A stretch of 64,000 bases of DNA from Phascolarctobacterium succinatutens CAG:287. Lineage in GTDB: Bacteria; Bacillota; Negativicutes; Acidaminococcales; Acidaminococcaceae. The notes under the pieces are model-generated. The model searched no databases, was not told where the DNA came from, and saw only the letters and a list, made by a program, of their open reading frames with translations. Both the position numbers and the translations under genes were made by a program. Location: the NCBI RefSeq assembly GCF_000434895.1, contig NZ_FR892810.1:1144-65143 (forward strand), in the 5' to 3' direction. Each line of letters begins with the position of its first letter. Within the stretch, counting starts at the first letter, position 1. Of the stretch, positions 2,745 through 26,883 are shown piece after piece.

Positions 2745-3557
2745 TTATTCGCTGTATTTTCTATATGCGGTGTGGTTGGTGCAGCCGACAATGTTATTGA
2801 TAGCAAAGCCATGCTTGAGCGCAGCAGTGACAAATTTCTTTGCCTGCAGCACAGCTTCCTTCATGCTCAGGCCGTCTGCCAAACCTGCAGTGATTGCTGC
2901 CGAGAAGGTGCAGCCTGCGCCATGGTTGTAGGAAGGATAAATCTTCGGCACAGCCATTTCTGTGAATTCCTTGCCATCGTAGAAAATATCAATAGCGGAA
3001 TTATCGCTCAGACGCTCGCCGCCCTTGATAACAACGCTCTTCGCACCGGCAGCAACAATTTTCACTGCTGCTTCCTTAATCTGCTCTACGGTAGTAACCT
3101 CCGGCATATCCGCAAGATAAGCAGCCTCCACGGTATTCGGGGTAATAACATCGCAGCGCGGCATCAGCAGCTTTTTGATAGCTTCTGCCGCATCCGGCAC
3201 CAAAATCAAATCGCAGCCCTTGCAGACCATAACCGGGTCAATAACCACGTTCTGCAAAGCGTACTTATCAATCGTCGCCGCAACCAGCTCTACCAGCCCA
3301 GCACTGCCCAGCATACCGGTCTTCATCGCATTGATGCCAACACCTTCAATCGCTGTCACCAGCTGCTTTTCCACCAAATCCAAAGGCAGAGGGAATACGC
3401 TGTGTTCCCAGGTAGTCGGGTGCATTGTTACAATGCAGGTCAAAGCAGGCATACCAAAAACGCCCAGCTCCTCCATAGTTTTAATATCTGCTTCCATACC
3501 GGCACCGCCGCTTGTATCGCTGCCGGCAATAGTCAATGCTTTATTCATCAAGGTCAT
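2745..3557 (-). CDS. hydroxymethylpyrimidine/phosphomethylpyrimidine kinase or pyridoxal kinase (ThiD/PdxK ribokinase-fold family)
   Basis: ALTIAGSDTSGGAGMEADIKT ... GAGCTFSAAITAGLADGL motifs of the ThiD/PdxK family. Start moved to the ATG at 3557, which has an AAGGAG RBS; the ORF-track start at 3626 lacks one. Confidence 0.85.
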   Translation of the reverse strand: MTLMNKALTIAGSDTSGGAGMEADIKTMEELGVFGMPALTCIVTMHPTTWEHSVFPLPLDLVEKQLVTAIEGVGINAMKTGMLGSAGLVELVAATIDKYALQNVVIDPVMVCKGCDLILVPDAAEAIKKLLMPRCDVITPNTVEAAYLADMPEVTTVEQIKEAAVKIVAAGAKSVVIKGGERLSDNSAIDIFYDGKEFTEMAVPKIYPSYNHGAGCTFSAAITAGLADGLSMKEAVLQAKKFVTAALKHGFAINNIVGCTNHTAYRKYSE

Positions 3558-3693
3558 AAAGACACACTCCTTCACTTTAATAATGTAATCATTATAACCT
3601 ATCGACTGGCATCTGAATAAGCTCAATTTATGGATATTTAATATGGTCAGTTCAGACTATCGTTTATAAAAGAGCAAAACTGGCGCAAACCTT

Positions 3694-5556
3694 TTAGAAG
3701 GTATAAGTGTAGGTCACATGCACCATGCGCGGCAGGCAGTAATACTTGGTAGTAGCGCCAGGATTGCTTACGATATCATCTCGGTCGAAAATATTCTCCA
3801 CGCCAAGCTCTACGCTACTGCTCTTGTCGAGCTTATAGCCGGCAATAAAGTTTACCGGCAGCAAATCGCCCCAACCGCTGGCTCTATCCGTAGTAAACAT
3901 GCCTGTCAGCGCAGCATTGAACTTAGCATCATGGTATTTAATACTTGCATTGTATTGCTCGCGTGCAAATTTACGCTCCCATACGCCTTTTTTATTTTTG
4001 CCCATAGGATTGCAGAAATTAGCGCCCAGAGAATAGCTGTATTTGCTACCGAAATCCTTCTCATAGGTCATTTCCAGACCTTTATTTTTAAAGGACATAT
4101 TACGTGTCACAGACGGATTGGAGCTGGTTCCCCTGCCTTCGTACTCAATAGTATCCAAATCCATATAATACAAAGCAGCTTTGAACATGCTTGTATTAGA
4201 TGCCTTTTTGTAACCGAACTCATAGGTCCAACCTTCTTCAGGCTCCAGAAATGGATTAGCCGCAACGTTGGTACCGCCGCCGCCGTAAATTTGGGTAAAT
4301 GTAGGCATCTTAAAAGATTTTGCCGCATTTGCATATAAGCTGCTGTTATTATCCAGCTTCTTCAGCAAAGCAAACTGCGGTGTAAAGGCATCATAACGCT
4401 TATTGGCCTCTACAACAGTTTCACGGGCACCTACGGTAGCAGTATAGCCTGCGCCAAGATCCTTAGAAAGCTGTGCAAACACAGCATAATTTGTTCTGAA
4501 TTCATTAATCTTCGTACCGGGTTTAATGTTTTTTGCTACGGTAATATCATTTTTATAGGAATCACGGGAAACCGTCGTACCAACAATAACATCACCGAAT
4601 TTACCGGTAATCTGCTTTTGCAAATCAAGGCCTATGGTATCAAAGCGTAAATGATCGGACTTGGTCCATTTAGAGCCGGTAACATTGTAGGTCTGATTTC
4701 TGCGATTGCTGCGGTTATAAAACAAATTGGCACTCACGCTGTCATCCTTATATTGCAAGCGTGAAAAATCATCAATGTAGTGGTAATTCGCATCCTCGGT
4801 AAGCTTGCTCCAGGTTTTTTCAAACTGATCATAGGAATACTTGCTGTCGTTATGCTGGTGCGAGAAGCTCCAGTTATCATCAAACTTATAGCTGGCGGTA
4901 AAGGACTTTTTGTTTAAATCGTTAATCTGCTTATAGTTACTGCTATAACCCTTCATCGGGTCGCTCTGCTCCAGCGCCACTGCCAAATTCAGCTTATCGG
5001 CATTCAATGTCAGCGCTGCCTTTTCCCTGCCGTATTCGCCCTTAGTCAGTGACAAAGTGTTAGGCATCTTCTTTTTCGTGATGATATTGATAACACCGGT
5101 AGAAGCCTCGGAACCGTAAAGAGTAGAAGCAGCGCCCTTAACTATTTCTACGCGTGCAATAGATTCCACAGGAATAGAGTCCAGATAATAGCTTTCATTG
5201 ATGTTGGCAGGCATGCCGTCAATCATCACCACGGTACCCTTGTTAGCACCACGCATCAGGATTTTGGCATTCATACCGCCAAGGGACTGGCTGCCGCCAT
5301 AGGAGTAGGTAGTTACGCCGCTTTGCAGACGCAAAGCATCAAAAAGATTAGCAGCGCCTGTTTCAACAAGCTGCTTTTGGGAAACGGTAGTAACGGAAGC
5401 AGGCGTATCTACATCACGCTTGCTTTCGCGCTGCGCGGTAACAACCATGGTGTCAAGATTGTATGTCTGCAGGCTGTCGGCAAAAGCCGGAGCCGCAAGA
5501 GATATATTAGCAGCCAGCATTGTGGCTGCCAGTAAAAACTGGGTATTTTTTCTCAT
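3694..5556 (-). CDS. TonB-dependent outer-membrane receptor
   Basis: Signal peptide; TonB box/plug region (DTMVVTAQRESKRDVDTPASVTTVS ... ILMRGANKGTVVMIDGMP ... VEIVKGAASTLYGSEASTGVINIITKK); long beta-barrel ending in aromatic ...YTYTF. Confidence 0.85.
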   Translation of the reverse strand: MRKNTQFLLAATMLAANISLAAPAFADSLQTYNLDTMVVTAQRESKRDVDTPASVTTVSQKQLVETGAANLFDALRLQSGVTTYSYGGSQSLGGMNAKILMRGANKGTVVMIDGMPANINESYYLDSIPVESIARVEIVKGAASTLYGSEASTGVINIITKKKMPNTLSLTKGEYGREKAALTLNADKLNLAVALEQSDPMKGYSSNYKQINDLNKKSFTASYKFDDNWSFSHQHNDSKYSYDQFEKTWSKLTEDANYHYIDDFSRLQYKDDSVSANLFYNRSNRRNQTYNVTGSKWTKSDHLRFDTIGLDLQKQITGKFGDVIVGTTVSRDSYKNDITVAKNIKPGTKINEFRTNYAVFAQLSKDLGAGYTATVGARETVVEANKRYDAFTPQFALLKKLDNNSSLYANAAKSFKMPTFTQIYGGGGTNVAANPFLEPEEGWTYEFGYKKASNTSMFKAALYYMDLDTIEYEGRGTSSNPSVTRNMSFKNKGLEMTYEKDFGSKYSYSLGANFCNPMGKNKKGVWERKFAREQYNASIKYHDAKFNAALTGMFTTDRASGWGDLLPVNFIAGYKLDKSSSVELGVENIFDRDDIVSNPGATTKYYCLPRMVHVTYTYTF

Positions 5557-5740
5557 ATATATTCATCCTCTCATGTGCATAAAACATCTGCCAAATATAG
5601 ATTTATAGCACTTTTAAGGATGGTTGTCAATAGGGTTTTAATATGAGAAGTGCCGCAGAAATAATAAAAACATATCTATTAATGCTTTTATTATAAAAAG
5701 CATTAACGATTCGTTCTTTTGTGCTTAATATATTTCAATG

Positions 5741-6694
5741 CTACACTATATCTCTAAAATATTGGATTGTTTTTTCCAATCCTACTTCCAAATCAACTTT
5801 TGGTTTCCATTTTAAAACATTCATAGCTAAAGAAATATCTGGACAACGTCTTTTAGGATCATCTTTTGGCAAAGCCTTATAAGAAAAATCAGAACTATTT
5901 TCACAATACAATCTGATTAAACTAGCAACATCAAAAATTGTTCTTTCATCAGGATTCCCTAAATTAACAGGTCCTTGAAATGAATCTTCCGTTGACATCA
6001 TTTTTAATAAACCATCCACCAAGTCATCAATATAGCAAAAACTTCTAGTTTGTTCTCCTCTTCCATATATAGTTAAGTTCTCTCCCCTTAACGCCTGAAC
6101 TATAAAATTAGAAATAACTCTACCATCATCAGCAGACATAAATGGGCCATACGTATTAAATATTCTTACAACCTTTACCAAAGAACCATATTTCCTCGCA
6201 TAATCAAAAATCAAGGACTCAGCACATCTTTTCCCTTCATCGTAACATGATCTGATACCTGTACAATTAACGTTTCCCAAGTAATTCTCTTTTTGTGGAA
6301 AAATTAACGGATCTCCGTAAACTTCGCTTGTACTAGCCTGTAAAAACTTTGCATGATTTTTTCGTGCCAAATTCAATAAATTCAATACACATATCGTGTT
6401 TACTTTAGTAGTATATATTGGATCTTCTTGATATTTCAATGGAGCTGCTGGACACGCAAGGTTATAAATCTCATCGATTTTATATGAAGAATCCAAAACA
6501 TCTAATATATCCAATATATCTCCATTTACTATATTAAATCTCTCAGTTTCTAACAATACTCTTACATTATTTATATTTCCAGTCGTAAGATTATCAAAAC
6601 ATATTACGTGGTTCTGTAAATTATCTAGCAGTCGACGGCATAAATTGGAACCAATAAATCCAGCTCCTCCCGTAACCAAAATAGTACTCATCAT
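5741..6694 (-). CDS. NAD-dependent epimerase/dehydratase, UDP-glucuronate decarboxylase (UXS)-like
   Basis: N-terminal GGAGFIGSNL Rossmann motif, catalytic YxxxK-like region (YDEGKR), and UXS-like blocks RIFNTYGP and LTIYGRGEQTRSFCYIDDLV. AT-rich gene. Confidence 0.8.
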   Translation of the reverse strand: MMSTILVTGGAGFIGSNLCRRLLDNLQNHVICFDNLTTGNINNVRVLLETERFNIVNGDILDILDVLDSSYKIDEIYNLACPAAPLKYQEDPIYTTKVNTICVLNLLNLARKNHAKFLQASTSEVYGDPLIFPQKENYLGNVNCTGIRSCYDEGKRCAESLIFDYARKYGSLVKVVRIFNTYGPFMSADDGRVISNFIVQALRGENLTIYGRGEQTRSFCYIDDLVDGLLKMMSTEDSFQGPVNLGNPDERTIFDVASLIRLYCENSSDFSYKALPKDDPKRRCPDISLAMNVLKWKPKVDLEVGLEKTIQYFRDIV

Positions 6695-6746
6695 TTCCTC
6701 CTAAAAACCAAACGCAGCAAATCGTCGTTGATAGTAATCATAAAAA

Positions 6747-7946
6747 TCAAAGCACTATACGATTAAAACGAGCTTCATTCGAAAGGCTAGTACGTAAAGC
6801 TTTACTACAATAAAACGGATCCAGGTTATATTCTTTCAAAATTTTATCTAATGAATAAAAATAATTAATAACAGTTTCAAATGACGGGACATCACAATCC
6901 AAACGATTTCCTTTATCAAGGTGTAACACATTTGCACTAGAAACAATACCTTGAGAAGCAAGGTATTGATTAAATTTAAGCAAATTTCCAATAGGTTCTA
7001 AACCTAAAACAAAATTAGTCCAAGAATTACCATAGCCAAATACATCAACACCTTTTTTTAAAGCATCTAAGATATGATTAAATCCGATGTTCTTTTTTCC
7101 TGGACAATATTTTGCAAAATCATCTTCATTCCCAAGCTCAAAATTAAATACTATTTTTTCAATTCCGGCTTCCTTAAAGTCTTCTAGTATGTCTAAATCA
7201 TTGGGCGGCATACAAACTGCTATAATACCTTCAGTAGACTTTTTCTCTACTAATGGCTTTATTGCCCTAACAATATCACAATAAATGTGAGCTTGCATAT
7301 CTAACACTTGATCAGATAAGTCTCCAGAAATCAGAATCACATGCATATGTTCATCATAACATTTTGACTTAATAGCCGCTTTGACTGATTTCGTGAGATA
7401 ATTTAGATATGTATCCTTATTTTCATTCCAAAAATCGGGAGAAGAAACCTGATATGCCGTAAAAATACTTGCTTTGTTTTCACCAGCAACAGTGTTTGCA
7501 CCACAGAAAAGACAACCTGCAGAAATATTGCATCCTTTCCAAGGAATTATGTTCAATTCATCCAAACCACAAGCAGATACAAAATCCTTTGCAACTAAAT
7601 CTTCTTCTAATTTATAAGAATAGTAGTCAGGTTCTTCAATAAAAGAGATTGAAATATCTTCAACTTTTCTATTATCAACAGTCGCAAATAATTCCCCATT
7701 TTTGCAATCAACCACTACTGGTTTTAACTTTCCAGGAGCCACACAAGAAGATACTGTTTCAAATCCATCCGAATGACGTATCAATAATTCTTGAGGACGG
7801 AAGTTATCTGCTCCTACCGGAGCATTGTATACCAAATTCTGAATCTTGGCATTTGTCTTACGTGCATATAAAAGAGCTTCATCAGTAAATTGTACCCCAT
7901 GCGTTAATATCATAGCTTTTAAAAAAGTTTCAGGCATTATCATCAT
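6747..7946 (-). CDS. hypothetical protein, possible radical-SAM-like enzyme with noncanonical CX5CX2C motif
   Basis: The only Cys triad is CNISAGCLFCGAN. Downstream segments (HVILISGD, NFVLGLEP) sit where the GGE-like and GxIxGxxE-like radical SAM TIM-barrel motifs would be. No canonical CX3CX2C. Confidence 0.35.
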   Translation of the reverse strand: MMIMPETFLKAMILTHGVQFTDEALLYARKTNAKIQNLVYNAPVGADNFRPQELLIRHSDGFETVSSCVAPGKLKPVVVDCKNGELFATVDNRKVEDISISFIEEPDYYSYKLEEDLVAKDFVSACGLDELNIIPWKGCNISAGCLFCGANTVAGENKASIFTAYQVSSPDFWNENKDTYLNYLTKSVKAAIKSKCYDEHMHVILISGDLSDQVLDMQAHIYCDIVRAIKPLVEKKSTEGIIAVCMPPNDLDILEDFKEAGIEKIVFNFELGNEDDFAKYCPGKKNIGFNHILDALKKGVDVFGYGNSWTNFVLGLEPIGNLLKFNQYLASQGIVSSANVLHLDKGNRLDCDVPSFETVINYFYSLDKILKEYNLDPFYCSKALRTSLSNEARFNRIVL

Positions 7947-8874
7947 TCTTATCTCCTCTTAGTATATTAAAAATCCAAACGATATGAAATATTGGAAAAA
8001 ACAACTGATAAATTACACCATAAAATAGTAGTTTATAATCTTTTCTAGTCATAAGTAAAGCGATTGCTAAAATATAAATCATTCCAGCGTACAAATTACA
8101 ATAACTAATGTATCCAATCATAAGCCAATTGACTATCCAACTAAAATGGTAAAATGCTGCATGCAATAATAATTTGCTTTGATATTCTTTTCGTTTCGGA
8201 TATGAGAATATTTGATAGAAACCTTTCGCCCAACGCTTACGTTGTCTACATAATCCCCCAAAATTTGTATTAGGTTTTTCGTAACCAAGAAGAAAAGACG
8301 ATCGTAATATACTATAGTCTTTCCTATTATTACTTATATAAGCGCCAATAGCAAGATCATCTAAAAAAGTATCAATTTGATATAATTTATCTTGAAAAGC
8401 TTTTGGTCTAATAAAAAAGCATTGTCCTGGTATACTAATTCCCATATTTAATTTCCACGATAAAGGTCTTATCAAATCATGAGATAAGTGTTTATCCGTC
8501 GCCACTAGATTTGATATAAAGCCAGACTGTGATTGGGCATAAATTCGTCCCCATCCAATATCATATTTCCCTGATAATCCTTTTTCTAAAAACTTGAGTA
8601 TTGTCTCGTCATTTACATTTATATCGTTATCAATACTCAAATATAAACAATCCTCTTGTTCTCTTTCAAATAAATACAGTAGCCTAATATACTTTGTTCC
8701 CGGAAAATTTATACTATCGATTTTTATGCCATCAAATTCAAATTTTCTATCATTATCAGTAAATATGATACAAGAGATTTTTGTATTAAGCTTTAACGAA
8801 AGCGTAAGTATCTTTTTTATATTATCATTAAAAGCCTCATTGCTTCGCATATATGTTATAATTTTCAAGTTCAT
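7930..8874 (-). CDS. membrane glycosyltransferase family 2
   Basis: DXD-like motifs (SIDNDINVND), Q-R-K-R-W motif (CRQRKRWAKG) typical of processive/inverting GT2 enzymes, and C-terminal transmembrane helices. 4-nt-scale overlaps with both neighbours. Confidence 0.7.
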   Translation of the reverse strand: MNLKIITYMRSNEAFNDNIKKILTLSLKLNTKISCIIFTDNDRKFEFDGIKIDSINFPGTKYIRLLYLFEREQEDCLYLSIDNDINVNDETILKFLEKGLSGKYDIGWGRIYAQSQSGFISNLVATDKHLSHDLIRPLSWKLNMGISIPGQCFFIRPKAFQDKLYQIDTFLDDLAIGAYISNNRKDYSILRSSFLLGYEKPNTNFGGLCRQRKRWAKGFYQIFSYPKRKEYQSKLLLHAAFYHFSWIVNWLMIGYISYCNLYAGMIYILAIALLMTRKDYKLLFYGVIYQLFFPIFHIVWIFNILRGDKNDDNA

Positions 8875-10484
8875 ATTATATCTACCTTTTCTCCATTCAT
8901 ATAAACATATTCAAGCTTCATTCTTTTGGCAGAAAGCAAAGCGTCTGATTGACTTTCTACAATAGGTTCTCCTTTGCCATTAAAAGAAGTGTTAATCAAT
9001 ACTAATTCCCCATATTTTTTCTCAAGATAATCTAAAATTTTCCAAATCAGCTTTTTATTTTGATTCTCGTATATAACTTGAATTCTAACAGTATTATCTT
9101 TATGAACCAAAGCTGGCATATAATCTATCATTTCAGGTTTAATATTTATTGCCGATAGCATAAGCGGACTAGCTATTCTATCATCAGTAATCTTTTTCAG
9201 ATTACGCTCTAATATTACACCTCCAAAAGGTCTAAAGTTTTCCCGATGCTTTATCTGTAAATTGAGCCGATCCTTCATGTTCTTACTTTTTGCAGAAGCA
9301 ATAATGCTTCGATTGCAAAGAGCTCGCGGACCATATTCCGAGCCACCTTCAAATAGTCCTATAATCTTATCATCATGTATATCTTTTATTACCTGAAATA
9401 ATACAGATTCATCATAACATATTTCACCATAACTTTTTCCTAATGCATAGTCCCACTCAATTTTACTCTTATCTTTAAATATTTTTCTAATTGCCCAAAG
9501 TCCTGCTCCTATAGAAATTCCGTCATCTCCACTTGCTGGAAAAAGACCCAATGAATTAATCAATCCACTATTTATTAATTTTCCATTGTTAAGGCAATTT
9601 AATGCAACCCCACCAGAAAAACAAAAATCTAGGACATTATATTTTTCAGAAAAATATTTAATACGGGTTTGAATGTAGCTTTCTAATTCGAATTGAAGAG
9701 CACATGCAATATTTTTTGCTGTTTGCAACTCATATGATAGTGGATAATCTTGTGAATTTAAATAATCTAACCATTCTTTACGAACATGTAATTTTTTATC
9801 AAAATACAGACATTCTGGTACATCAGCATTCCCCACACCATATGCTGCCAATGCCATAACTTTGCCAGCTGCATTATAATCCTTAAAAATCAGTCGGCTA
9901 ACATCGGCATAGGCATATCCTATGGAGTCCATATGTGATCCCCATTTGTATTTATGCTTAGATGCACTTTCATGAACAGCATATTTCTTTTCAGCTTGTA
10001 ATTCAGTTATTTCGCCATTATCCAGTAGATATAGAGATTCTGCTTCAAATAAATCTTCTTCTGATAAGCTCGAACATCCATTATCAACTGGTCTGCACCC
10101 ACGCCCATCCATTATATAAATTAATGTCTTGTCAAATTTAGCTGCTAAAGATGCTGCATATGCATGAAATAAATGATGCTCATATCTCACAATTACTTTT
10201 GAAAACTTCTTATAATAATCATCATTAATTTCAGTTGAATCATACCAATTTACACGAACAACTAACGAAATTTGATTATACGTAATACCAGCAGCTTTAA
10301 GTAAATATTCTATGCATTCAATAGGTTCTCCAGAATCATGTTTTTTTCTAGTTAATCGCTCTCTGGCAATTGCATAGAGTAATTGATTATTTTTATATAA
10401 ACATGCTGAAGAATCATGTCCACTATGAACGCCAAGTATATAACGATCCACTTGATTCCCCCCTTTACAAACGTGCTTTTTCAA
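8871..10484 (-). CDS. carbamoyltransferase (NodU/CmcH/TobZ family)
   Basis: N-terminal ASKHA/Kae1-like block ILGVHSGHDSSACLYKNNQLLYAIARERLTRKKHD and C-terminal YrdC-like carbamoyltransferase region. About 537 aa, the typical length. Confidence 0.8.
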   Translation of the reverse strand: MKKHVCKGGNQVDRYILGVHSGHDSSACLYKNNQLLYAIARERLTRKKHDSGEPIECIEYLLKAAGITYNQISLVVRVNWYDSTEINDDYYKKFSKVIVRYEHHLFHAYAASLAAKFDKTLIYIMDGRGCRPVDNGCSSLSEEDLFEAESLYLLDNGEITELQAEKKYAVHESASKHKYKWGSHMDSIGYAYADVSRLIFKDYNAAGKVMALAAYGVGNADVPECLYFDKKLHVRKEWLDYLNSQDYPLSYELQTAKNIACALQFELESYIQTRIKYFSEKYNVLDFCFSGGVALNCLNNGKLINSGLINSLGLFPASGDDGISIGAGLWAIRKIFKDKSKIEWDYALGKSYGEICYDESVLFQVIKDIHDDKIIGLFEGGSEYGPRALCNRSIIASAKSKNMKDRLNLQIKHRENFRPFGGVILERNLKKITDDRIASPLMLSAINIKPEMIDYMPALVHKDNTVRIQVIYENQNKKLIWKILDYLEKKYGELVLINTSFNGKGEPIVESQSDALLSAKRMKLEYVYMNGEKVDII

Positions 10485-11127
10485 TTGCCATACTATGTCT
10501 ACGTTTTTCTATGCAATTCGGACAATGGAAAGAATGAATTATCCCATTATACCCACAGCCTTTTTCTTCGCTAAGATTTATTTCTTTAGTTTTTTCCGGA
10601 TGCTTATCTCTGTATCTATTTTTTATTTCAACACTACATTTTATACAAGGAACATCATTTTTTTCTTTTACATATACTGCAATTCCTGTTTTATCCCATA
10701 TATTGAGTTCATCACAAGTACTACAATACGCTAAAAACCAAGGAAATCCCCCATATAAATGTGATATTAATTTTTTTGAAAAAACATACTGAAATTCTTG
10801 TATTTCAAAATCACCTTTTTCTTGAAGAGCTTCATATACCTCATTATCAAATGATTCGCCTGGCCGAAATAAAAGATAGGTATCAGATTCATCGATGTTC
10901 AAATCGCAGCTTTTATATTCATTATACCCCAAAATATCATATACTAATGCCGGAACCCATGGATATAAAATATGAGTATTATCTCTATCAATTGCTTTTA
11001 GGTCCTCATAAGTTTTAATCTTTGAAGTACACTTAATCAATTCATCTTTATCAATTTCTATTCCCTGCATTTTCATAGCTAATTTAAATGATTTTATGCA
11101 AACACTATCCATCTCAAACCTCATCAT
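10465..11127 (-). CDS. hypothetical protein with C-terminal zinc-ribbon-like Cys pairs
   Basis: CxxC...CxxC...HCPNC arrangement in the last 70 residues. No recognisable catalytic motif. Translationally coupled to neighbours by overlaps. Confidence 0.5.
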   Translation of the reverse strand: MMRFEMDSVCIKSFKLAMKMQGIEIDKDELIKCTSKIKTYEDLKAIDRDNTHILYPWVPALVYDILGYNEYKSCDLNIDESDTYLLFRPGESFDNEVYEALQEKGDFEIQEFQYVFSKKLISHLYGGFPWFLAYCSTCDELNIWDKTGIAVYVKEKNDVPCIKCSVEIKNRYRDKHPEKTKEINLSEEKGCGYNGIIHSFHCPNCIEKRRHSMAIEKARL

Positions 11128-12283
11128 GCTTAATATATTGGCTACCGATTAGTAGTCTATCTTTTATTTTCTTATAATACGCTTCTGAGAAATTATCTCC
11201 TAAACATATAGCTAATCGATTATTGGCACTAGGATCTAATCTATCAATTCTATCTCCTAATTTTTTTAATTTTATAGCCTGTAAATCGTTAATAAGAAAA
11301 TTATCATTTATTAGCGTTCCCATAGTATTAGGGATAAAATTCAACTGAAAAACATTTTGGAAATTTCCTTTATTAGCTATGCATTTTTCTCCAAACAACA
11401 CTTCTAAGGAATCCCTATATAAATTACCACCATGGTATCTCAGTAATTCTGAAATTCCTCCACCCACTCGGCATGAGAAATCAATCGGAACTAGCACATT
11501 GCTGACACTAGTAGGTGAAATAAAATCGAATTGTCCGAATGAAATATTATCATAATCAAACAACGCATTGCACCATAATTCTAAATATCTTCTTATAAGC
11601 TCTGTTGGTTCTTCTAATACATATGCTAATACACACGGAGCATTATCAATAATTGTTCTGTATTTTTTGCATACCCTAACAACAGAAATTTTACCCTGAA
11701 AGAAAAAAACATCCGCACTATATTCTACGCCATCAATAAATTCAAAACATATTGATGGTGAAGCTGTAATATCTAATACTTTTTTTACCTTTTCGTCGAC
11801 AATAGACGCATCAATTAAATACTTATCTATATTGTGATAATTTAACGCAGAAATAATTTTGACGCCGTGTCCTGAATATTGATTATCTGGTTTTATAATA
11901 TATACTTTTTGTTTATCTGACACTATTTTTTTTACATTGCTCGTTATTTCATATCTATTCGATGGCAATCCGTGTTGCATCATGCAATCCGCTAAATATT
12001 TTTTAGACCGACTAGCCTTAAATGCTTTAGTAGAAATTCTACACCTTTTTACATTCTTTTTACACCATGTTACCCAATATTCATTTAATGGCACTACTAT
12101 TGAATCTTCATCTTTAATATCATTTTTAACACTTACTTCTTTCAAATCATCTGAACTAATATATTTTGCCATTTCAGGTGTTTCAACAAATTGCAATGCG
12201 AAATCCGAATTTTTAGAAGCAGCTTTTATATCTGCCAATCCATATATGCTTGCAGCACCTGCAAATATTATTATTGTTTTCAT
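11114..12283 (-). CDS. ATP-grasp domain protein (putative ligase)
   Basis: Central block KQKVYIIKPDNQYSGHGVKII typical of the ATP-grasp fold (D-Ala-D-Ala ligase/RimK/graspetide-ligase families), about 390 aa. First gene after a 540-bp gap containing a terminator. Confidence 0.55.
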   Translation of the reverse strand: MKTIIIFAGAASIYGLADIKAASKNSDFALQFVETPEMAKYISSDDLKEVSVKNDIKDEDSIVVPLNEYWVTWCKKNVKRCRISTKAFKASRSKKYLADCMMQHGLPSNRYEITSNVKKIVSDKQKVYIIKPDNQYSGHGVKIISALNYHNIDKYLIDASIVDEKVKKVLDITASPSICFEFIDGVEYSADVFFFQGKISVVRVCKKYRTIIDNAPCVLAYVLEEPTELIRRYLELWCNALFDYDNISFGQFDFISPTSVSNVLVPIDFSCRVGGGISELLRYHGGNLYRDSLEVLFGEKCIANKGNFQNVFQLNFIPNTMGTLINDNFLINDLQAIKLKKLGDRIDRLDPSANNRLAICLGDNFSEAYYKKIKDRLLIGSQYIKHDEV

Positions 12284-12611
12284 CTCAATTTCTCCTAGAT
12301 TAACTCTAAACCCAATTATATGAAAGCTTGTGCCGTTAACAAAAAGAATATCAATAGTGATTTTTGCGTCAAACCTATTGTTCCGAAAAGTAGCGGGTAC
12401 TACATATCAATCTTATTTTAGCGCAATCGAAGCTATTAGTAAATCCTGCTACAAATTTTTTAAAGACATGATATACTTCGCGCATTCTTAAAGTTCTTAC
12501 GAATAAATATAATAAAAACGAGAAATGCCACAAAAATTACATAAGCGTCTAATAAAGTCTCCACTTACAAAGCATACAAATTAATATTACATATCTAAGC
12601 AAAAAACAAAA

Positions 12612-12662
12612 CCTCCTATTCCAGAATGTTAATATACCGAAATATACATTCTAAAAAGGAGG
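12612..12662 (-). terminator. Rho-independent terminator/attenuator downstream of small peptide gene 1
   Basis: Inverted repeat cctcctattccagaatgt...acattctaaaaaggagg, which on the minus strand is followed by a T-run (ttttgtttttt). Lies between the peptide gene and the ATP-grasp gene. Confidence 0.45.
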
Positions 12663-12821
12663 CTGAGACAGTATATCTTCCGAAAATTATATCACTAAAT
12701 TACTCAACATTAAACCATCTGAGGTGTTATCTTTAACTGGAAGCTCAAAAAAAGGTACTATTATTCTTAAGATTCACCTGAAAGTTAACGATTAGATCCA
12801 CTCAATTCCAATAACAATAAA

Positions 12822-13019
12822 TTATTGATTGAATCTTATTGAATTATTGTTTACAGACAGTAAAGCTTTACTGTGAATATCTCTAAGCATTAAACCAGAA
12901 GCAGTGCCCACAGAAAATGCTGATGCTGCACTAAGTCCGGCAACAGCGCCTACGACAGCGGGAATAGCACCCTCACTAGGATATAAATTATTAATTAATG
13001 GTTTACTATATTTTTTCAT
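12822..13019 (-). CDS. small Gly/Ala-rich peptide (candidate RiPP/bacteriocin precursor 1)
   Basis: 65 aa: MKKYSKPLINNLYPSEGAIPAVVGAVAGLSAASAFSVGTASGLMLRDIHSKALLSVNNNSIRFNQ. Its ATG overlaps the PqqD-like stop (ATGA). Paralogous to the peptide at 13310..13474, with a shared MKK[YS][SY]xKP N-terminus and an A[IF]P..VGAxxAG core. Confidence 0.5.
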   Translation of the reverse strand: MKKYSKPLINNLYPSEGAIPAVVGAVAGLSAASAFSVGTASGLMLRDIHSKALLSVNNNSIRFNQ

Positions 13020-13306
13020 TTTTTATCCTCCAATCTGATAATATTTTTCCATTGTAAATCCCTAATCAGATTTACTATGTCTTGTTCTAAACTATTTTCG
13101 TCAATTACGTAATCCTTAAGAAACATTTCTTTTATTTCTTCGATTTTTCTTTTTCCATCGCATAATTCCAGAAAATTTTTAGCCGTTTCATTTAAATAAA
13201 AAATATCTAAACCGTCTGATTCTGCTATTAAAAAATCTTCATTTTCCCTAGTCTTTAAGGCTATAACTCTAGGAATCTTATCTTTAAAAAAATCGTACAC
13301 CACCAC
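13016..13306 (-). CDS. PqqD-family protein (RiPP recognition element, peptide chaperone)
   Basis: LNETAKNFLELCDGKRKIEEIKEMFLKDY matches the PqqD/RRE signature (LNxTaxxIWeLcDGkrTveEI). About 95 aa. Probable GTG start, 3 nt after the peptide-2 stop. Confidence 0.7.
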   Translation of the reverse strand: MVVYDFFKDKIPRVIALKTRENEDFLIAESDGLDIFYLNETAKNFLELCDGKRKIEEIKEMFLKDYVIDENSLEQDIVNLIRDLQWKNIIRLEDKK

Positions 13307-13309
13307 AAT

Positions 13310-13474
13310 TCACCTACCTAAATTTTTCAGTTTTATTACAGGGCTCGCTTTCATAGCATGAGCTACTGCTCTTCCAATTACGTAACCACCAGCTAAAGCT
13401 GCACCTACCATCGGAAACGCACTTTTCCCCATATCAAAGCACATAGCCACTGGTTTTATATAACTTTTCTTCAT
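13310..13474 (-). CDS. small Gly/Ala-rich peptide (candidate precursor 2), absent from the ORF track
   Basis: Manual translation from the ATG at 13474 (RBS TAAGGAG 6 nt upstream) gives 54 aa: MKKSYIKPVAMCFDMGKSAFPMVGAALAGGYVIGRAVAHAMKASPVIKLKNLGR, stop at 13310-13312. Paralogous to peptide 1. Confidence 0.5.
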   Translation of the reverse strand: MKKSYIKPVAMCFDMGKSAFPMVGAALAGGYVIGRAVAHAMKASPVIKLKNLGR

Positions 13475-13560
13475 AGCAAACAACTCCTTATAATATCTTT
13501 TATTTTTACCGATTTTCTCGGTCTTTTGTAGTTTTTTATATTTTAAGTCAGCTTTTTGTT

Positions 13561-14601
13561 TTAGACTAAAATATCTTTATCAACATGATTTTGAATATTG
13601 CCCTTTTGAGTCTCCTCGTTTATTGAGGCAATAAATTTTTGAACTCTTTCACTCTTCCATGCATTAATTCCGTGCTTCATCCATAACTCTTTTAGTGAAG
13701 TATTTAACACATTGCCAATAATGAACGGAGCCATGCAATCTAATCGGAATTCCCCATTAGGTCTAATGATACCGCCAGCATTATTCTCTAAGCTATACCT
13801 TTTCATTTGATGCCCCAAATCAGCACTTCTTCTAATTTCTATTTTCTCGTTATACTTATTTTGAAGCTTACTAATAACTTCATACAAGCAATTTTTTTGT
13901 TCTTTCGTTAAAATAATATCTTCATTAGTAATAGCTCTTCCACTAGGCAAAACCTCACCTAAAATAATTCTGCTTGCCCCCATGCTATAAGCTAAATCTA
14001 CCATATCCTCAACTTTTCCTAGATTTTTAGGAGTTACCGTATGAGCAATTACAAGAGGTATACCAGCTTGAGAAATTTCCAAAGCACCATTTACCGCTCG
14101 TTCAAAGCTGCCTCTCACCCCCCTGAACTCGTCATGAATTTCTGCTGTTGAACCGTCAATAGATACTTGAAACCAATAATATCTATACTTACTAAAGCGT
14201 TTTACTTTTTCTTTAGTCAGCAGGTAACCGTTTGTAATAACTACAAAAGAAGTCCCATCATCATGCAAAATATCCATTATGTCAAATAGGCGATCACCTA
14301 ATAATAATGGCTCTCCGCCAGAAAGAATACATTGAAAAATACCGCCATCTTTAACTATCTCTTTAGCCAAACTGCACCATTTATCTGGTGTCATTAACGT
14401 CTCCCTATCAGCATCACCAGATCTATTATAACAATGCTTGCACGCAAGATTGCATCGTCCTGTTAATTCAAATTGTAACGTAATCGGATATGTAAATTTT
14501 TCAGGATATAAGCCTTGTTTTCTTAAATTAGTAATATTTTCTTCAATAGCCTTTAGATATTGATTATCTAACGCTCTGTTTATTTTTATATAATCTTTCA
14601 T
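13561..14601 (-). CDS. radical SAM enzyme (peptide-maturase-like, PqqE/anSME-type N-terminal domain; incomplete SPASM cysteine set)
   Basis: Canonical CNLACKHCY (CX3CX2C) at residues about 50-58, SAM-binding ILSGGEPLL, and the glycine-rich barrel motifs. The C-terminal region has only two Cys (RLDCMAPF), so no full SPASM. Start overlaps the upstream gene (ATGA). Confidence 0.85.
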   Translation of the reverse strand: MKDYIKINRALDNQYLKAIEENITNLRKQGLYPEKFTYPITLQFELTGRCNLACKHCYNRSGDADRETLMTPDKWCSLAKEIVKDGGIFQCILSGGEPLLLGDRLFDIMDILHDDGTSFVVITNGYLLTKEKVKRFSKYRYYWFQVSIDGSTAEIHDEFRGVRGSFERAVNGALEISQAGIPLVIAHTVTPKNLGKVEDMVDLAYSMGASRIILGEVLPSGRAITNEDIILTKEQKNCLYEVISKLQNKYNEKIEIRRSADLGHQMKRYSLENNAGGIIRPNGEFRLDCMAPFIIGNVLNTSLKELWMKHGINAWKSERVQKFIASINEETQKGNIQNHVDKDILV

Positions 14602-14870
14602 TCTTTTTCTCCTTTTATTATTTTACAAAAAAAGTAAATAATACGATGAAATTCACGAACACTCATATACGGAAAATACTTTTCGTAAACATACTTACCA
14701 TTGCAAGCATTCGGCCGGATAGAATAAATTGAACATCTGTTATCCACATTCAAGAATTTGCAAATACCATCGCCTCTATCAAATCCTAATAATTGCAGTA
14801 TTCTATTCACATGTTTACAACATTCCCCACAGCAATCGCATGGAAACGGATAATACTTTTGCACAATCAT
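14598..14870 (-). CDS. YkgJ-family cysteine-cluster protein (putative Zn/Fe-chelating domain, PF03692-like)
   Basis: FPCDCCGECC = CxCCxxCC motif, plus further Cys (C..C, CNGK), characteristic of the YkgJ / flagellin N-methylase-like cysteine cluster. 90 aa. Confidence 0.55.
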   Translation of the reverse strand: MIVQKYYPFPCDCCGECCKHVNRILQLLGFDRGDGICKFLNVDNRCSIYSIRPNACNGKYVYEKYFPYMSVREFHRIIYFFCKIIKGEKE

Positions 14871-14954
14871 TTCCCCTTAATAACATTGACATAAATTTGA
14901 CCTTTTTGTTTTAAGAACGTTTTATATTTAGTTTATTAATGAGAGTTTTTGATT

Positions 14955-15185
14955 TTATCCATTCTCCACCCCATCCATCAGCTCGCTCATCGTAATACCT
15001 AGTTTCTCGGCAATCTTCATTAAGGTTGAAAGTGATACGCTTTTTGTATAACCGCCATTTTCAATACGCGATAAATATTGCGGCGTAATGCCAACTTCTT
15101 CTGCAAGCTTCTCTTGTGTCATGCTCTTCAATTTTCTATAAAAAACTATCTTGGCACCTATTTTCTTATATCGCGACGCAAACAT
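14955..15185 (-). CDS. XRE-family helix-turn-helix transcriptional regulator (type a)
   Basis: LKSMTQEKLAEEVGITPQYLSRIENGGYTKSVSLSTLMKIAEKLGITMSEL is a classic Cro/C1-type HTH. Sits immediately upstream of, and co-directional with, the YkgJ/rSAM/peptide operon. Confidence 0.8.
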   Translation of the reverse strand: MFASRYKKIGAKIVFYRKLKSMTQEKLAEEVGITPQYLSRIENGGYTKSVSLSTLMKIAEKLGITMSELMDGVENG

Positions 15186-15342
15186 TTAGCTCTCACTCCT
15201 CTTACCACTATATTATCGCACATTCTCAATTTCTTATCTTTGCACAATTGTTTCATAACTTTACATATAGTTTAATTTTTTTTGCGCCTTGCTTTTTGGA
15301 GCTCGCCAATGTACTTACATCATTATTTATTTCTGCTGCTTC

Positions 15343-15585
15343 TTACTTTCTCTCCTGCATAAGCCGCACCGGGTCAACCCCCAAAGCCTGCGCCAGCAAA
15401 AATATAGACTCCATATTAAAGGGTCCCTTGCCGCATTCGATGTCTGAAACGCGCGCTCTTGACATTTTGGCCTTCTCCGCCAGCTCGCTCTGCGTCAGGC
15501 TCAATGCCCTACGATAATACATTATATTCAAGCCAATAGTTTTATATTTTTCTTCAAACAAAAAGTACCACTCCTTATCTCTCAC
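15343..15585 (-). CDS. XRE-family helix-turn-helix transcriptional regulator (type b, copy 1)
   Basis: LSLTQSELAEKAKMSRARVSDIECGKGPFNMESIFLLAQALGVDP. About 96% identical to the protein at 21719..21937. Confidence 0.8.
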   Translation of the reverse strand: MRDKEWYFLFEEKYKTIGLNIMYYRRALSLTQSELAEKAKMSRARVSDIECGKGPFNMESIFLLAQALGVDPVRLMQERK

Positions 15586-15758
15586 CTTATATTATGCACT
15601 AAAAAGGTAGCTCGTGCGGTGCTTTAAATTTTATATATGTGGAATATATTTGACATGAATGCTGTAAACTTCCTTACTTACCGCCTGCTTTTAGTATAAA
15701 TTGAAATGAGAAACAATAATACCACTATAAAATTTCTTCTTTGTGATATTTGAATAAG

Positions 15759-15864: not shown

Positions 15865-16926
15865 TTATTTCAGCAGTGCTACTTTGGAATCTCCAACGCC
15901 GCTATTCAGCTGTGCTGTTTTTGAATTTGCAACGGCCTTACTCAGCAGGGCAACCTTTTTATCTATTTCCTTTTGGACACGCTCTTTGTAATCCTTTAAG
16001 GCCGCATCAATGGTATCGATAACCTGGGAATCGTAATCCACATAATTAATGGCGTCCTTCAAATCTCCTATATATTCTTCGCAAGCCTTATTTACATCTT
16101 TATAGCAATATTTCTCTTCATATTTATCATTACCGAAGAAGCTAGTGCCTGCATATACTTCTGTATCATCTGTATCCATATAATCCCTATAATCACTACG
16201 GGAAGTATAATTGCAGCCATTAAACTCTCTCATTACATCACTGCAGCCGCGCTCTTCAAACTCTTTAAGCCTTACATTGAGCATATACACAAGCACAGAA
16301 TCCTTCTCATTAGCACTGCCGCCCGGGAAAACCGCAAATTCTTTAAAGTCTGCCGGCAGCTTAATTCCGCCTGCAGCTGCCGCTCCGGCAAATTCCTGCA
16401 GCACATCTGCATACTGCTTGTTAATCTGCCCCCAGAAGCCGCTTTCATCAAAAGTATAAAATCTTCTCAGCTTGTCTTCCTTATATTGCACAAAAACCTC
16501 AAGAATGAATTTCTTATACTGCGAATAGCAGATACGATCAAATTCACTTTCCGCAGCACTCATAGCTCTGCTTTCGCTGGAATAATCATAACGATATTCT
16601 CCCTGCGGATAGGAGCAGGTCATACGGTAATCCTGTGCGTGCATCTCAACATCTTTTCGGGTAACATTCGGAACGGTAATCTTTGCTAAAGCGTTTTGCA
16701 GTTTTTCCGGCAGCTTGCTTAAGTCTGCGCCTTCGCCTTCCGCTATGCTTAAAGCTTGTACAGGGCAACCGGCAACAATTTCTTCAGCCTTGGCTAAAAA
16801 ATCATCACTAAAATAGCCACCATTTACAGGAACAGCCTTGCCTTCAGCATCTTCCTGCAAAAGTTTTGTTTCTAATAAGCAGTTGCCACAAGCAATGCAT
16901 TTTTCACTAACTACAAATTTTTTCAT
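15865..16926 (-). CDS. hypothetical protein with N-terminal single-cluster 4Fe-4S ferredoxin-like domain
   Basis: N-terminus CIACGNCLLET...AGCPVQAL resembles single [4Fe-4S] ferredoxin domains. The remaining roughly 290 aa have no recognisable motif. First gene downstream in a three-gene operon. Confidence 0.5.
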   Translation of the reverse strand: MKKFVVSEKCIACGNCLLETKLLQEDAEGKAVPVNGGYFSDDFLAKAEEIVAGCPVQALSIAEGEGADLSKLPEKLQNALAKITVPNVTRKDVEMHAQDYRMTCSYPQGEYRYDYSSESRAMSAAESEFDRICYSQYKKFILEVFVQYKEDKLRRFYTFDESGFWGQINKQYADVLQEFAGAAAAGGIKLPADFKEFAVFPGGSANEKDSVLVYMLNVRLKEFEERGCSDVMREFNGCNYTSRSDYRDYMDTDDTEVYAGTSFFGNDKYEEKYCYKDVNKACEEYIGDLKDAINYVDYDSQVIDTIDAALKDYKERVQKEIDKKVALLSKAVANSKTAQLNSGVGDSKVALLK

Positions 16927-16942
16927 CTTGATTCCTCCAAAT

Positions 16943-19122: not shown

Positions 19123-19159
19123 ACGCCGCCTCCAAAATTTATTGAGAAGTATCTTCTAC

Positions 19160-19390
19160 TCCTTCCATTAGCTCACTCATCGTAATCCCTAGCTTCCTGG
19201 CAACCTATTCCTGTATCAAACTCTTCAATTGCCTGCAAGTAAGGCATCTTAGTGCCTATTTTCTTATATCTCTGTGCAAATAATTAGCATTAGCTCCCTT
19301 TCCCACTATATTATCGCACATTATCAATTTCATATCTTTGCACAATTTTTCACAATTTTACATATAGTTTAATTTCTTGCGCTTTACCTA
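19160..19390 (-). pseudogene. remnant of type-a XRE regulator gene plus its conserved downstream noncoding segment
   Basis: 19160-19270 aligns to the 5' and 3' parts of the 14955..15185 gene with about 80 nt missing internally. 19290-19390 (ctatattatcgcacattatcaatttcatatctttgcacaatttttcacaattttacatatagtttaattt) matches 15205-15290. Confidence 0.5.
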
Positions 19391-19573
19391 TTAAGCTTTG
19401 CAAGGTGCTTACGTAATTTATATTTCCGCCATGATTTTGATAATAAGTTATGGTGCATTTTTTTCAAACTCACGTCAAATCACCCATTTGCCATATGAGC
19501 ATGAATATATTTAAAGTTCAACATATTAAATAAATTTTTAGCAGGACTGCAAAACGCAGCCCTGCCTGTTACC

Positions 19574-20992: not shown

Positions 20993-21044
20993 ACTATGAC
21001 CTCCCTATATAACTTTTCCAGTTAAATGTTTTATAAAAAAAGTA

Positions 21045-21677: not shown

Positions 21678-21718
21678 AATATCTGCCTCCCTCTAATATT
21701 TTTTATTGCCGCTGCTTC

Positions 21719-25117: not shown

Positions 25118-25203
25118 TTCCTATCGTTTCAGAGAGTGCGCCCGAAGCACACGCTATCGGTTTTACATTTCTGCGTTTAGCTTCTCTTTTCTCAATCTTA
25201 CCC

Positions 25204-26836: not shown

Positions 26837-26883
26837 ATTAGACTACTTGTTTATTATAACAGATTCTTATCTAAATTGCAAGA

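Follow-up and report, generated by a model that had tools for sequence, protein, structure and literature searches.

The window, the 64-kb stretch of DNA that was analysed, holds six co-directional, overlapping minus-strand genes at positions 5741-12283, which form one operon as the earlier note had proposed; all six open reading frames were found. In 5' to 3' order on the minus strand, they encode an ATP-grasp enzyme, a protein named p220, a carbamoyltransferase, a GT2 glycosyltransferase, a radical SAM enzyme and a UDP-xylose synthase (UXS), proteins that the databases name only as "hypothetical", "radical SAM protein" or "glycosyltransferase" (Table 1). Junction distances were computed with the gene starts called in other assemblies. 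The ATP-grasp and p220 genes are separated by 1 nt (they overlap by 14 nt if the longest reading frame is used), and p220 and the carbamoyltransferase gene by 13 nt. The carbamoyltransferase and GT2 genes overlap by 4 nt, the GT2 and radical SAM genes by 14-17 nt, and a gap of 52-55 nt precedes the UXS gene. An AGGAGA ribosome-binding site was found 8 nt 5' of the ATP-grasp ATG.

Table 1. Genes and transcription signals of the operon
Feature	Position	Strand	Remark
AT-rich hairpin followed by a U-rich tract, 3' of the UXS stop codon	5666..5718	-	dG -18.4 kcal/mol, z -4.28
UDP-glucuronate decarboxylase (UDP-xylose synthase, UXS), last operon gene	5741..6694	-	human UXS1 match
Variant radical SAM enzyme, CX5CX2C, 399 aa	6747..7946	-	NF045502 "variant_rSAM"
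Membrane GT2, minimal cellulose/hyaluronan-synthase-like fold, 314 aa	7930..8874	-	Glyco_trans_2_3
O-carbamoyltransferase, TobZ/NodU/CmcH family (Kae1-like + YrdC-like domains)	8871..10484	-	probable start 10451, 526 aa
p220, putative ATP-grasp partner protein, 220 aa	10465..11127	-	probable start 11112, 215 aa
ATP-grasp carboxylate-amine ligase, first operon gene, 389 aa	11114..12283	-	weak ATP-grasp_4 and GARS_A matches
Promoter-like boxes of the operon: TTGACG-16-TATTCT with TG; TTGTTA-16-TATAAT	12315..12372	-	consensus match only
Intrinsic-terminator-like hairpin with U-tract, end of the peptide module	12600..12664	-	dG -25.1 kcal/mol, z -2.98

The GC content of the operon genes is 0.29-0.33 (GC3 0.20-0.22), compared with about 0.48 in the host and 0.45-0.52 (GC3 0.49-0.56) in the adjacent TonB, ThiD and GltD-like genes, in good agreement with the earlier description of an operon far poorer in GC than the flanking chromosome. 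The neighbouring RiPP-like genes are also low in GC (GC3 0.20-0.29), so that the low-GC tract is wider than the operon; because of this, low GC alone neither separates nor joins the two modules. The operon was horizontally acquired by its host, the gut bacterium Phascolarctobacterium succinatutens.

Family and profile matches supported the earlier assignments of the UXS, CX5CX2C radical SAM, GT2, carbamoyltransferase and ATP-grasp proteins. The UXS protein matched human UXS1 over residues 4-315 (E 9e-91, 308 bits), the next PDB family being found at 1e-38. It carries GGAGFIGS at residues 9-16 (Rossmann GxxGxxG) and YDEGK (catalytic YxxxK), and on its sequence the operon SDR is taken to be a true UXS orthologue. 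Relatives carry UDP-glucose dehydrogenase beside UXS; no gene for this dehydrogenase was found within the 64-kb window. The carbamoyltransferase was recognized by Carbam_trans_C (E 4e-50, 170 bits, cut-off 27) and Carbam_trans_N (E 1e-26, 94.6 bits, cut-off 24), and its PDB matches were 7xb6, TobZ, GdmN and NovN. EHHLFHA aligns with QHHLAHA of TobZ and MDGRG with VDGQG, and the metal site of the Kae1-like domain (HxxxH...D) is retained. The protein is not a NodU equivalog, as it scored 116 bits against a curated cut-off of 1000.

The radical SAM enzyme exceeded the cut-off of NF045502 (143.8 against 125 bits) and showed the radical SAM barrel fold. The motif C139-x5-C145-x2-C148 (CX5CX2C) is invariant across 40 homologues, and four more invariant cysteines (C68, C126, C281 and C380) are dispersed along the chain. 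The enzyme resembles the lipoyl and biotin synthases (the group of LipA, BioB, HydE/G, PylB, ThiH and NosL), but that group has CX3CX2C, its gene context is cofactor-type whereas the context here is glycan-type, and LipA lacks the N-terminal domain of about 130 residues. An assignment as lipoyl synthase (LipA/LipS) was rejected: the LipS2 model gave 15.7 bits against a cut-off of 270, the extra cysteines are dispersed and an N-terminal CX4CX5C auxiliary-cluster motif was not found. A CX5CX2C megacluster (4-10) is among the motif variations in RadicalSAM.org (PMC9477430).

The GT2 is predicted to consist of a cytoplasmic GT-A domain, an interface helix and about three C-terminal transmembrane helices. 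Its D82-N-D84, D168/D173 and Q211-R-x-R-W215 residues (D, DxD, D, Q(Q/R)xRW) are invariant across 45 homologues. The fold is nearest to HAS and BcsA, and nearer to this class than to the polyprenyl-phosphate GT2s. About three helices, compared with at least six for the channel of a processive synthase, are too few for the GT2 alone to form a translocation channel. Synthase-dependent glycan operons (streptococcal hasABC for hyaluronan, pneumococcal type 3 cps3DS, NodC) likewise hold a single membrane GT2 with D, DxD, D and QxxRW, placed beside UDP-sugar donor enzymes (UXS here, UDP-glucose dehydrogenase in the relatives) in a small operon without Wzx, Wzy or ABC machinery. A GT2 synthase together with a NodU-family O-carbamoyltransferase is also found among the Nod-factor decoration genes (NodC with NodU and NodS), and in one relative of the cassette a methyltransferase replaces the carbamoyltransferase. 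Unlike the nod clusters, the operon has no NodA or NodB homologues, and its ATP-grasp, p220, radical SAM and UXS proteins have no counterpart there.

A profile built from 29 ATP-grasp homologues matched the L-amino-acid ligase BL00235, PurD and GshAB in the PDB. The adjacent p220, which had been described as a zinc-ribbon protein, gave no match in Pfam, NCBIfam, PADLOC or PDB, and neither its 13-16 homologues nor the fused forms conserve its cysteine pairs, so that this description was abandoned. Homologues of the ATP-grasp enzyme and p220 are fused in P0008, P0011, P0013 and L044; p220 aligns with the C-terminal half of the 598-aa fusion P0008 (33% identity, E 2e-29). The motifs YGG.pW..Y, KN..R and FH.P..EN are invariant in p220, which is, as far as sequence can tell, a partner of the ATP-grasp enzyme.

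In L011, a 94%-identical lineage, the promoter-like boxes of the operon are kept, and the first of them is TTGACA. The terminator hairpin that had been postulated between the peptide reading frame and the operon is present, complete with its U-tract. It lies downstream of the 65-aa reading frame and 320 nt before the operon start codon, and is invariant in four lineages. The hairpin 3' of the UXS gene, which none of 200 shuffled sequences equalled in stability, is likely the operon terminator; beyond it lies the TTGACA-17-TATAAA box of the TonB receptor gene. With its promoter-like boxes and a terminator hairpin on either side, the operon seems to have its own transcription signals.

Outside Phascolarctobacterium, the neighbourhoods of 41 independent loci were compared. 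The ATP-grasp, GT2, carbamoyltransferase and radical SAM homologues stay together as one cassette in Spirochaetales, Cupriavidus, Janthinobacterium, Acetobacter, Zoogloea, Aliivibrio, Salegentibacter and Desulfonema, and in many metagenomic contigs. The order that recurs across phyla is ATP-grasp, p220, carbamoyltransferase, GT2 and radical SAM, while the position of UXS varies. In all 41 loci the GT2 and radical SAM genes are no more than 2.5 kb apart. This adjacent pair is the invariant core, around which the accessory sets are interchangeable; in a second architecture, ADP/GDP-heptose genes and a GT9 are swapped in.

The cassette has integrases on both of its sides in L063, a plasmid-like TrfA replicon in L058 and an IS element in L050. 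Its repeated horizontal transfer is supported by its GC content, which is lower than that of the flanks in several hosts and equal in others. The cassette was not found in phage, plasmid and IMG/VR collections, an absence that is neutral on a role in defence. Among the 132 proteins that neighbour 17 related cassettes, neither O-antigen or capsule export machinery nor a flippase, exporter, polymerase or ligase recurred. Likewise, positions 1-27 kb of the window hold no Wzx/Wzy/Wzz, ABC export system, initiating phosphoglycosyltransferase or multiple GT1/GT2/GT4 genes. The alternative raised in the earlier note, a horizontally acquired surface-glycan locus, stands as regards horizontal transfer and sugar chemistry, but in relatives the cassette has no O-antigen or capsule genes beside it.

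Homologues of the peptide, PqqD, SPASM and CxxCxxCC genes were found in none of the 41 loci by tblastn, which is insensitive to divergent SPASM and PqqD proteins and in L054 overlooked a distant SPASM gene lying 4.5 kb downstream. As the cassette occurs in many unrelated bacteria without peptide genes, its own sugar-containing product is most likely, and not peptide tailoring. The best reading of this product is a xylose-containing, carbamoylated glycan or glycolipid made at the membrane.

The following account of the donor sugar and the acceptor, of the sequence in which the enzymes act, of the radical chemistry and of where the product is located and what it does is inferred. Host UDP-glucuronate would be converted by UXS to UDP-xylose, from which the GT2 would transfer the sugar to a growing oligosaccharide or a lipid-linked group at the inner face of the cytoplasmic membrane. 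The radical SAM enzyme, as obligate partner of the GT2, may carry out a radical modification of its sugar product, and has enough cysteines for a possible second Fe-S cluster. A hydroxyl would be O-carbamoylated by the carbamoyltransferase via carbamoyl-AMP, and the ATP-grasp/p220 pair would attach an amide-linked group, e.g. an amino acid. As a counterpoint, however, xylose has no carboxylate on which an ATP-grasp enzyme could act. The end product would most likely be a decorated glycan or glycolipid that is envelope-associated or exported.

The product is unlikely to be a diffusible small molecule that is released after synthesis in the cytoplasm or at the membrane, such as a decorated oligosaccharide signal of the Nod-factor type or a sugar-nucleoside antibiotic, although this reading fares best among the alternatives. 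The GT2 fold is nearest to polymer synthases, no exporter or self-resistance gene is recurrent, the cassette of this window lacks the TruD-like, PP-loop and kinase genes, and the gene set matches no known nucleoside pathway.

It is clearly unlikely that the cassette is an island specific for lipopolysaccharide (LPS), decorating the lipid A-core or O-antigen of this diderm Firmicute. In other bacteria, pentose modification of LPS draws on UXS-type enzymes; the present host, a Negativicute, has an outer membrane, most hosts of the cassette are diderm, and the insertion lies beside tRNA-Ser, about 2 kb from a lipid A/Kdo/Lpt gene cluster (29-58 kb). The six genes themselves, however, are separated from the LPS genes by 17-23 kb that include defence-type genes, and no periplasmic transferase or flippase was found. 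The cassettes of relatives are not beside LPS, O-antigen or capsule genes, and the GT2-radical SAM core is also present in Lachnospiraceae and in a Ruminococcus-like contig that bears a sortase (Gram-positive type).

Anti-phage defence exerted by the product, e.g. by receptor masking or through a toxic sugar-nucleotide, would account for the place of the cassette in defence islands. Its neighbours include GmrSD_C/PDC-M40B, SLFN_AlbA_2 and AAA_21 in the window and helicase+DUF2726, WYL, DUF4145, type I restriction-modification and SLFN helicase genes in relatives; upstream content differs between strains and the cassette moves by horizontal transfer. Nevertheless, location in a variable island counts for little, no PADLOC-DB 2.0 model (E≤0.01) was matched by any of the six proteins and no sensor/effector logic was seen, which makes this role very unlikely.

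Peptide tailoring was one of the two readings that the earlier note weighed equally. In this host, the recruited cassette would add sugar, carbamoyl and ligated groups to the peptides encoded at 12822-13019 and 13310-13483, giving a heavily modified peptide. In all Phascolarctobacterium contigs examined, the two modules lie side by side and point the same way, also in a lineage whose ATP-grasp enzyme is only 94% identical, and both are AT-rich. The peptides are rich in Ser, Thr, Ala and Gly. The sole nearby regulator, an XRE-type HTH protein, lies upstream of the RiPP genes, and in L060 an XRE HTH gene is directly upstream of the cassette; the L060 protein, however, is no detectable homologue of that in the window. 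The arrangement recalls graspetide and glycocin pathways, with an ATP-grasp enzyme and a GT2 near small reading frames and a PqqD/radical SAM pair, but the cassette is without the peptides in 41 of 41 other loci. Neither peptide has a homologue in 15-17 other ATP-grasp-bearing cassettes, where the upstream genes differ by locus, and PqqD is not among the families matched by at least two of the 132 neighbouring proteins. A graspetide pathway was rejected, the ligase being of the amino-acid-ligase/PurD type and travelling without a precursor peptide; its profile matched no graspetide ligase (MdnB/MdnC/PsnB/CdnC) in the PDB at sequence level (E≤1). A glycocin pathway was rejected as well: the GT2 is of the membrane-anchored synthase type and not a soluble SunS/ThuS-like S/O-glycosyltransferase, no SunS-type chain was found in the top 50-60 structural hits, the 65-aa reading frame has no cysteine and the 57-aa one a single cysteine. 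With a terminator hairpin and separate promoter-like boxes between the modules, and a uniform GC3 of 0.20-0.22 in the cassette against 0.25-0.28 in the RiPP enzymes, peptide tailoring is the least probable reading, with a small probability left for co-option of the cassette in this host.

The cassette is an autonomous mobile module, to which a horizontally acquired glycan locus comes nearer than peptide tailoring. On balance, the six genes probably constitute one autonomous, horizontally acquired operon of P. succinatutens that builds a product of its own from nucleotide sugars, rather than being dedicated to the RiPP-like module.

The six minus-strand open reading frames of the cassette were found exactly where they had been described. 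With start codons as called by independent assemblies, neighbouring genes share 4-17 nt at some junctions and show gaps of 1-55 nt at others. The low GC content was borne out, with values of 0.29-0.33 for the cassette genes versus a mean of 0.48 for the remainder of the window. GC3 was very uniform (0.20-0.22). The adjoining TonB-receptor, ThiD and GltD-like genes displayed GC contents of 0.45-0.52 and GC3 values of 0.49-0.56, and a sharp GC boundary is located at 5.6-5.7 kb.

Features of the window and of the compared loci (L numbers denote homologous loci or contigs)
Feature	Location	Strand	Description
ThiD	window 2745-3626		PfkB/ThiD-family kinase, past the TonB receptor gene
UXS	window 5741-6694	-	human UXS1, 308 bits, E 9e-91; next SDR family E 1e-38; GGAGFIGS and YDEGK motifs
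Radical SAM	window 6747-7946	-	CX5CX2C motif
GT2	window 7930-8874	-	
Carbamoyltransferase	window 8871-10484	-	TobZ/NodU/CmcH family; both domains above threshold; Kae1-type metal motif kept
p220 (220 aa)	window 10465-11127	-	without family in Pfam, NCBIfam, PADLOC, PDB
ATP-grasp	window 11114-12283	-	profile resembling L-amino-acid ligases and PurD
Promoter-like box pairs (two)	window 12372-12315		
Hairpin with U-tract	window, about 12664-12600		dG -25 kcal/mol, z -3.0
Precursor-like ORF	window 12822-13019	-	65 aa
Precursor-like ORF	window 13310-13483	-	54/57 aa
Defence-type stretch	window 15865-26361		GmrSD_C/PDC-M40B-like 451-aa protein; 275-, 353- and 472-aa proteins without assigned role; SLFN_AlbA_2 with HATPase_c_4; AAA_21 ATPase
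Tandem tRNA-Ser pair	window 26745-26992		GCT and TGA anticodons
Negativicute LPS/outer-membrane cluster	window 29289-58137		past the tRNAs; LptF/G, LptB, LpxL-like acyltransferase, KdsD, KdsA, 843-aa WaaA-LpxK fusion, MsbA, LpxB, 1429-aa TamB-like protein
Shortened p220 (134 aa)	L003 11172-11576; L008 4305-4709		some P. succinatutens strains
Cassette of Cupriavidus gilardii J11	L053 147-8910		
ATP-grasp paralogue locus	L056 10001-16571		
PfkB/ThiD-family kinase, Aliivibrio	L063 11338-12327		
Second architecture	L123 1420-13601; L084 2663-13800; L062 2679-13621		HldE-like, GHMP-kinase/nucleotidyltransferase (heptose-nucleotide), thymidylate-kinase-like, GT9, class V aminotransferase (NifS-like), 600-aa protein, MBL hydrolase, P-loop kinase

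Every cassette enzyme can be placed in a known superfamily; UXS and carbamoyltransferase are typical members of their own. The earlier assignments of both were upheld: the match to human UXS1 suggests that the SDR protein is a genuine UDP-glucuronate decarboxylase, and the NodU/CmcH-type call for the carbamoyltransferase agrees with its domain scores and retained metal motif. The label of zinc ribbon for p220 had to be abandoned, because its cysteine pairs are not conserved and the ribbon is a lineage-specific appearance. In several relatives ATP-grasp and p220 form one protein, with p220 at the C-terminal end (595-608 aa; 33% identity, E 2e-29), and therefore the two proteins are taken to work together. 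A nucleoside-diphosphate-kinase-like domain was considered for p220, as its GIIHSFHxPNxIEN resembles the NDK motif NIIHGSDS; the idea was dropped when a 13-sequence profile aligned to E. coli Ndk with hhalign gave a probability of 0.1. Searches of the PDB by sequence with p220 and with GT2 returned no significant match, and a PADLOC run on all six cassette proteins gave zero matches. GT2 shares motif and fold with the membrane synthases, at a much smaller size.

The radical SAM enzyme is the best-conserved protein of the cassette, with 48-69% identity across phyla. Its family is small, comprising about 83 representatives at E<=1e-30 among 1.84 billion, and belongs to an uncharacterised variant-motif branch; a CX5CX2C megacluster is among the motif variations listed by RadicalSAM.org (PMC9477430). 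No match to the family or the cassette was obtained in plasmid, phage and IMG/VR collections.

In order to evaluate the conservation of the neighbourhood, two sets of loci were compared, 42 from an ATP-grasp profile scan of one genome per species and 55 from a radical SAM profile scan of metagenomes, together with exact-protein look-ups. The order ATP-grasp, p220, carbamoyltransferase, GT2, radical SAM was recurrent and the position of UXS varied. Hosts included a Spirochaetales genome, Cupriavidus gilardii, Janthinobacterium and several gut and environmental contigs. The Acetobacter cassette is devoid of the carbamoyltransferase, the Aliivibrio one is flanked by two integrases, and one copy lies on a TrfA-bearing plasmid-like contig. 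GT2 was found at 2.5 kb or less from the radical SAM gene in all 41 independent loci, namely those outside Phascolarctobacterium with sequence present on both sides. Homologues of the two peptides, PqqD, the SPASM enzyme and the CxxCxxCC protein of the RiPP-like module were detected in 0/41 of these loci by tblastn (E<=1e-3), which is blind to divergent SPASM enzymes. The gene-neighbourhood check proposed by the earlier note thus speaks against its peptide-tailoring reading, since the cassette recurs and the RiPP homologues do not. Locus L054 does have a SPASM gene, an unrelated one that lies 4.5 kb downstream on the far side of dynamin-like genes. When 132 non-core neighbours taken from 17 of these loci were scanned against Pfam, the only functional additions to recur were TruD, UDP-glucose dehydrogenase and PP-loop; the families matched two or more times did not include PqqD, nor any of Wzx/Wzy or capsule type. 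Of the other earlier reading, a horizontally acquired surface-glycan locus, the acquisition is supported and the company of Wzx/Wzy-type or capsule genes is not.

The Treponema homologues of the ATP-grasp enzyme were set aside as uninformative for the cassette, being mostly stand-alone paralogues beside a large TPR protein. Such paralogues (32-38% identity) are widespread in Treponema/Spirochaetales, with about 30 Treponema loci (L012-L043). At L056/L057 the paralogue adjoins an 1800-aa TPR protein and a Bmp-type ABC transporter, with no other cassette gene. A PfkB/ThiD-family kinase is encoded a few kb from ATP-grasp in Aliivibrio, in the window and at several Treponema loci (L012-L023), which may be a coincidence. 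In Cupriavidus gilardii J11 the cassette directly follows flagellar flgF-flgL and a 436-aa protein without assigned role that is common to Janthinobacterium (65% identity); the arrangement, seen in that lineage only, might point to flagellar glycosylation.

When neighbours were clustered, the invariant GT2-radical SAM pair proved to be set in two architectures. The window type carries ATP-grasp, p220, carbamoyltransferase and UXS, at times with a PP-loop ATPase, a TruD-like protein or UDP-glucose dehydrogenase. The second type, found in Desulfonema limicola and gut contigs, one of them also with a sortase, at times also includes UXS, UDP-glucose dehydrogenase and carbamoyltransferase. Its MBL hydrolase gave a weak match to Anti-Pycsar Apyc1, and the N-terminus of its 600-aa protein matched a SufU-like PDB entry weakly (E 0.34-0.38), a possible lead rather than a finding. 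The GC content of the cassette ranged from 0.28 to 0.66, well below the flanks in several hosts and equal to them in others, which points to repeated horizontal transfer. The Zoogloea copy is broken by an IS element, and accessory genes show decay in places: the Aliivibrio carbamoyltransferase is truncated, and in some P. succinatutens strains p220 is shortened with the other five genes intact, suggesting relaxed selection on, or decay of, an accessory gene.

Phascolarctobacterium succinatutens is a common succinate consumer of the human gut. The cassette was present in every contig of this species examined; GT2 is 99% identical to a P. succinatutens protein, the exact ATP-grasp protein has index entries in 74 data blocks, and the entire region occurs in a Phascolarctobacterium MAG at 82-99% protein identity. 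In a search for empty sites with the exact TonB-receptor protein, all contigs carried the cassette and no presence/absence polymorphism was seen. The tract of low or intermediate GC spans from 5.7 kb to the two tRNA-Ser genes at 26.7-27.0 kb, where GC regains the host level; the pair probably marks the edge at which the whole 5.7-26.7 kb island was integrated. Besides the RiPP-like module, the island holds defence-type genes of strain-variable content, the 353-, 275- and 451-aa genes being absent from some strains or replaced by an IS110 element.

The hairpin and U-tract previously placed 3' of the 65-aa ORF were confirmed. The two promoter-like box pairs follow about 230-290 nt past it, and an AGGAGA site precedes the ATP-grasp ATG. 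In a lineage with a 94% identical ATP-grasp, the whole spacer holding these signals is conserved to about 94%. Past the UXS stop codon lies another hairpin, also followed by U-rich sequence (dG -18.4, z -4.3), and a TTGACA-17-TATAAA box for the TonB-receptor gene comes after it. An Rfam scan of 5400-15700 for riboswitch or leader RNAs gave only sub-threshold chance matches. As sequence predictions, these signals would set off 12372-5666 as a separate transcription unit.

In the proposed pathway, UXS would convert host UDP-glucuronate into UDP-xylose; no UDP-glucose dehydrogenase was found within the 64-kb window. The minimal synthase-type GT2 would transfer a sugar at the membrane, and the radical SAM enzyme, its obligate partner, would modify the sugar product. 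The carbamoyltransferase would add a carbamoyl group and the ATP-grasp/p220 ligase an amide-linked group. The outcome would be a glycan or glycolipid with these decorations, made independently of the adjacent peptide. Donor, acceptor, order of steps and radical chemistry are given as we infer them. Sulfur insertion or a comparably demanding radical step is a reasonable guess and no more; it draws on the likeness of the radical SAM fold to lipoyl and biotin synthases, on the four extra invariant cysteines of the enzyme, and on the presence in the second architecture of a NifS-like gene together with a domain weakly similar to SufU (E about 0.3).

It is tentatively proposed, with low confidence, that the GT2-variant radical SAM pair represents an undescribed, rare and mobile class of nucleotide-sugar pathway. 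A radical SAM enzyme resembling lipoyl/biotin synthases and equipped with an auxiliary Fe-S cluster would rewrite the sugar made by the minimal synthase-type GT2; the chemistry could, for instance, be insertion of sulfur, yielding a thiosugar, or closure of a carbocycle. The accessory sets would be interchangeable, UXS/carbamoyltransferase/ATP-grasp on one side and heptose-nucleotide genes/GT9/NifS-like/weakly SufU-like protein on the other, and the pathway would give gut commensals an envelope glycoconjugate or secreted glycan of a new type. As the cassette occupies defence and variable islands, this product may play a part in interactions with phages or competitors.

The rival explanations partly overlap with the main reading, the proposed glycan or glycolipid pathway, and differ in the attachment and purpose of the product. 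A diffusible, Nod-factor-like or nucleoside-like small molecule is unlikely, though worth entertaining. An LPS-specific modification is improbable, and a defence function of the product slightly more so. Tailoring of the RiPP by co-option in this host is the most doubtful: the two modules are always adjacent within Phascolarctobacterium, and therefore distribution alone is compatible with linkage here, but tblastn detected no RiPP homologues in the 41 other loci. The two precursor-like ORFs both begin MKK..KP, contain a Gly/Ala-rich hydrophobic stretch and are 79-83% identical between Phascolarctobacterium lineages, versus 93-99% for the surrounding enzymes.

The searchable literature gave no description of the cassette by gene combination, CX5CX2C motif or P. 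succinatutens clusters, and no source gave a functional name for any member. We regard it as a biosynthetic cassette based on sugar nucleotides, whose core enzyme pair is unstudied. The result carries a warning for genome mining: ATP-grasp, GT2 and carbamoyltransferase genes beside a PqqD/SPASM module need a neighbourhood test before they are assigned to RiPP tailoring. The CX5CX2C radical SAM enzyme and its constant companion, the minimal HAS-like GT2, offer a clean and compact test case, of two to six genes, for new sugar radical chemistry. Should the product prove to be a surface glycan or glycolipid, it would help to determine phage susceptibility, immune recognition or colonisation in a diderm Firmicute in ways as yet unstudied.
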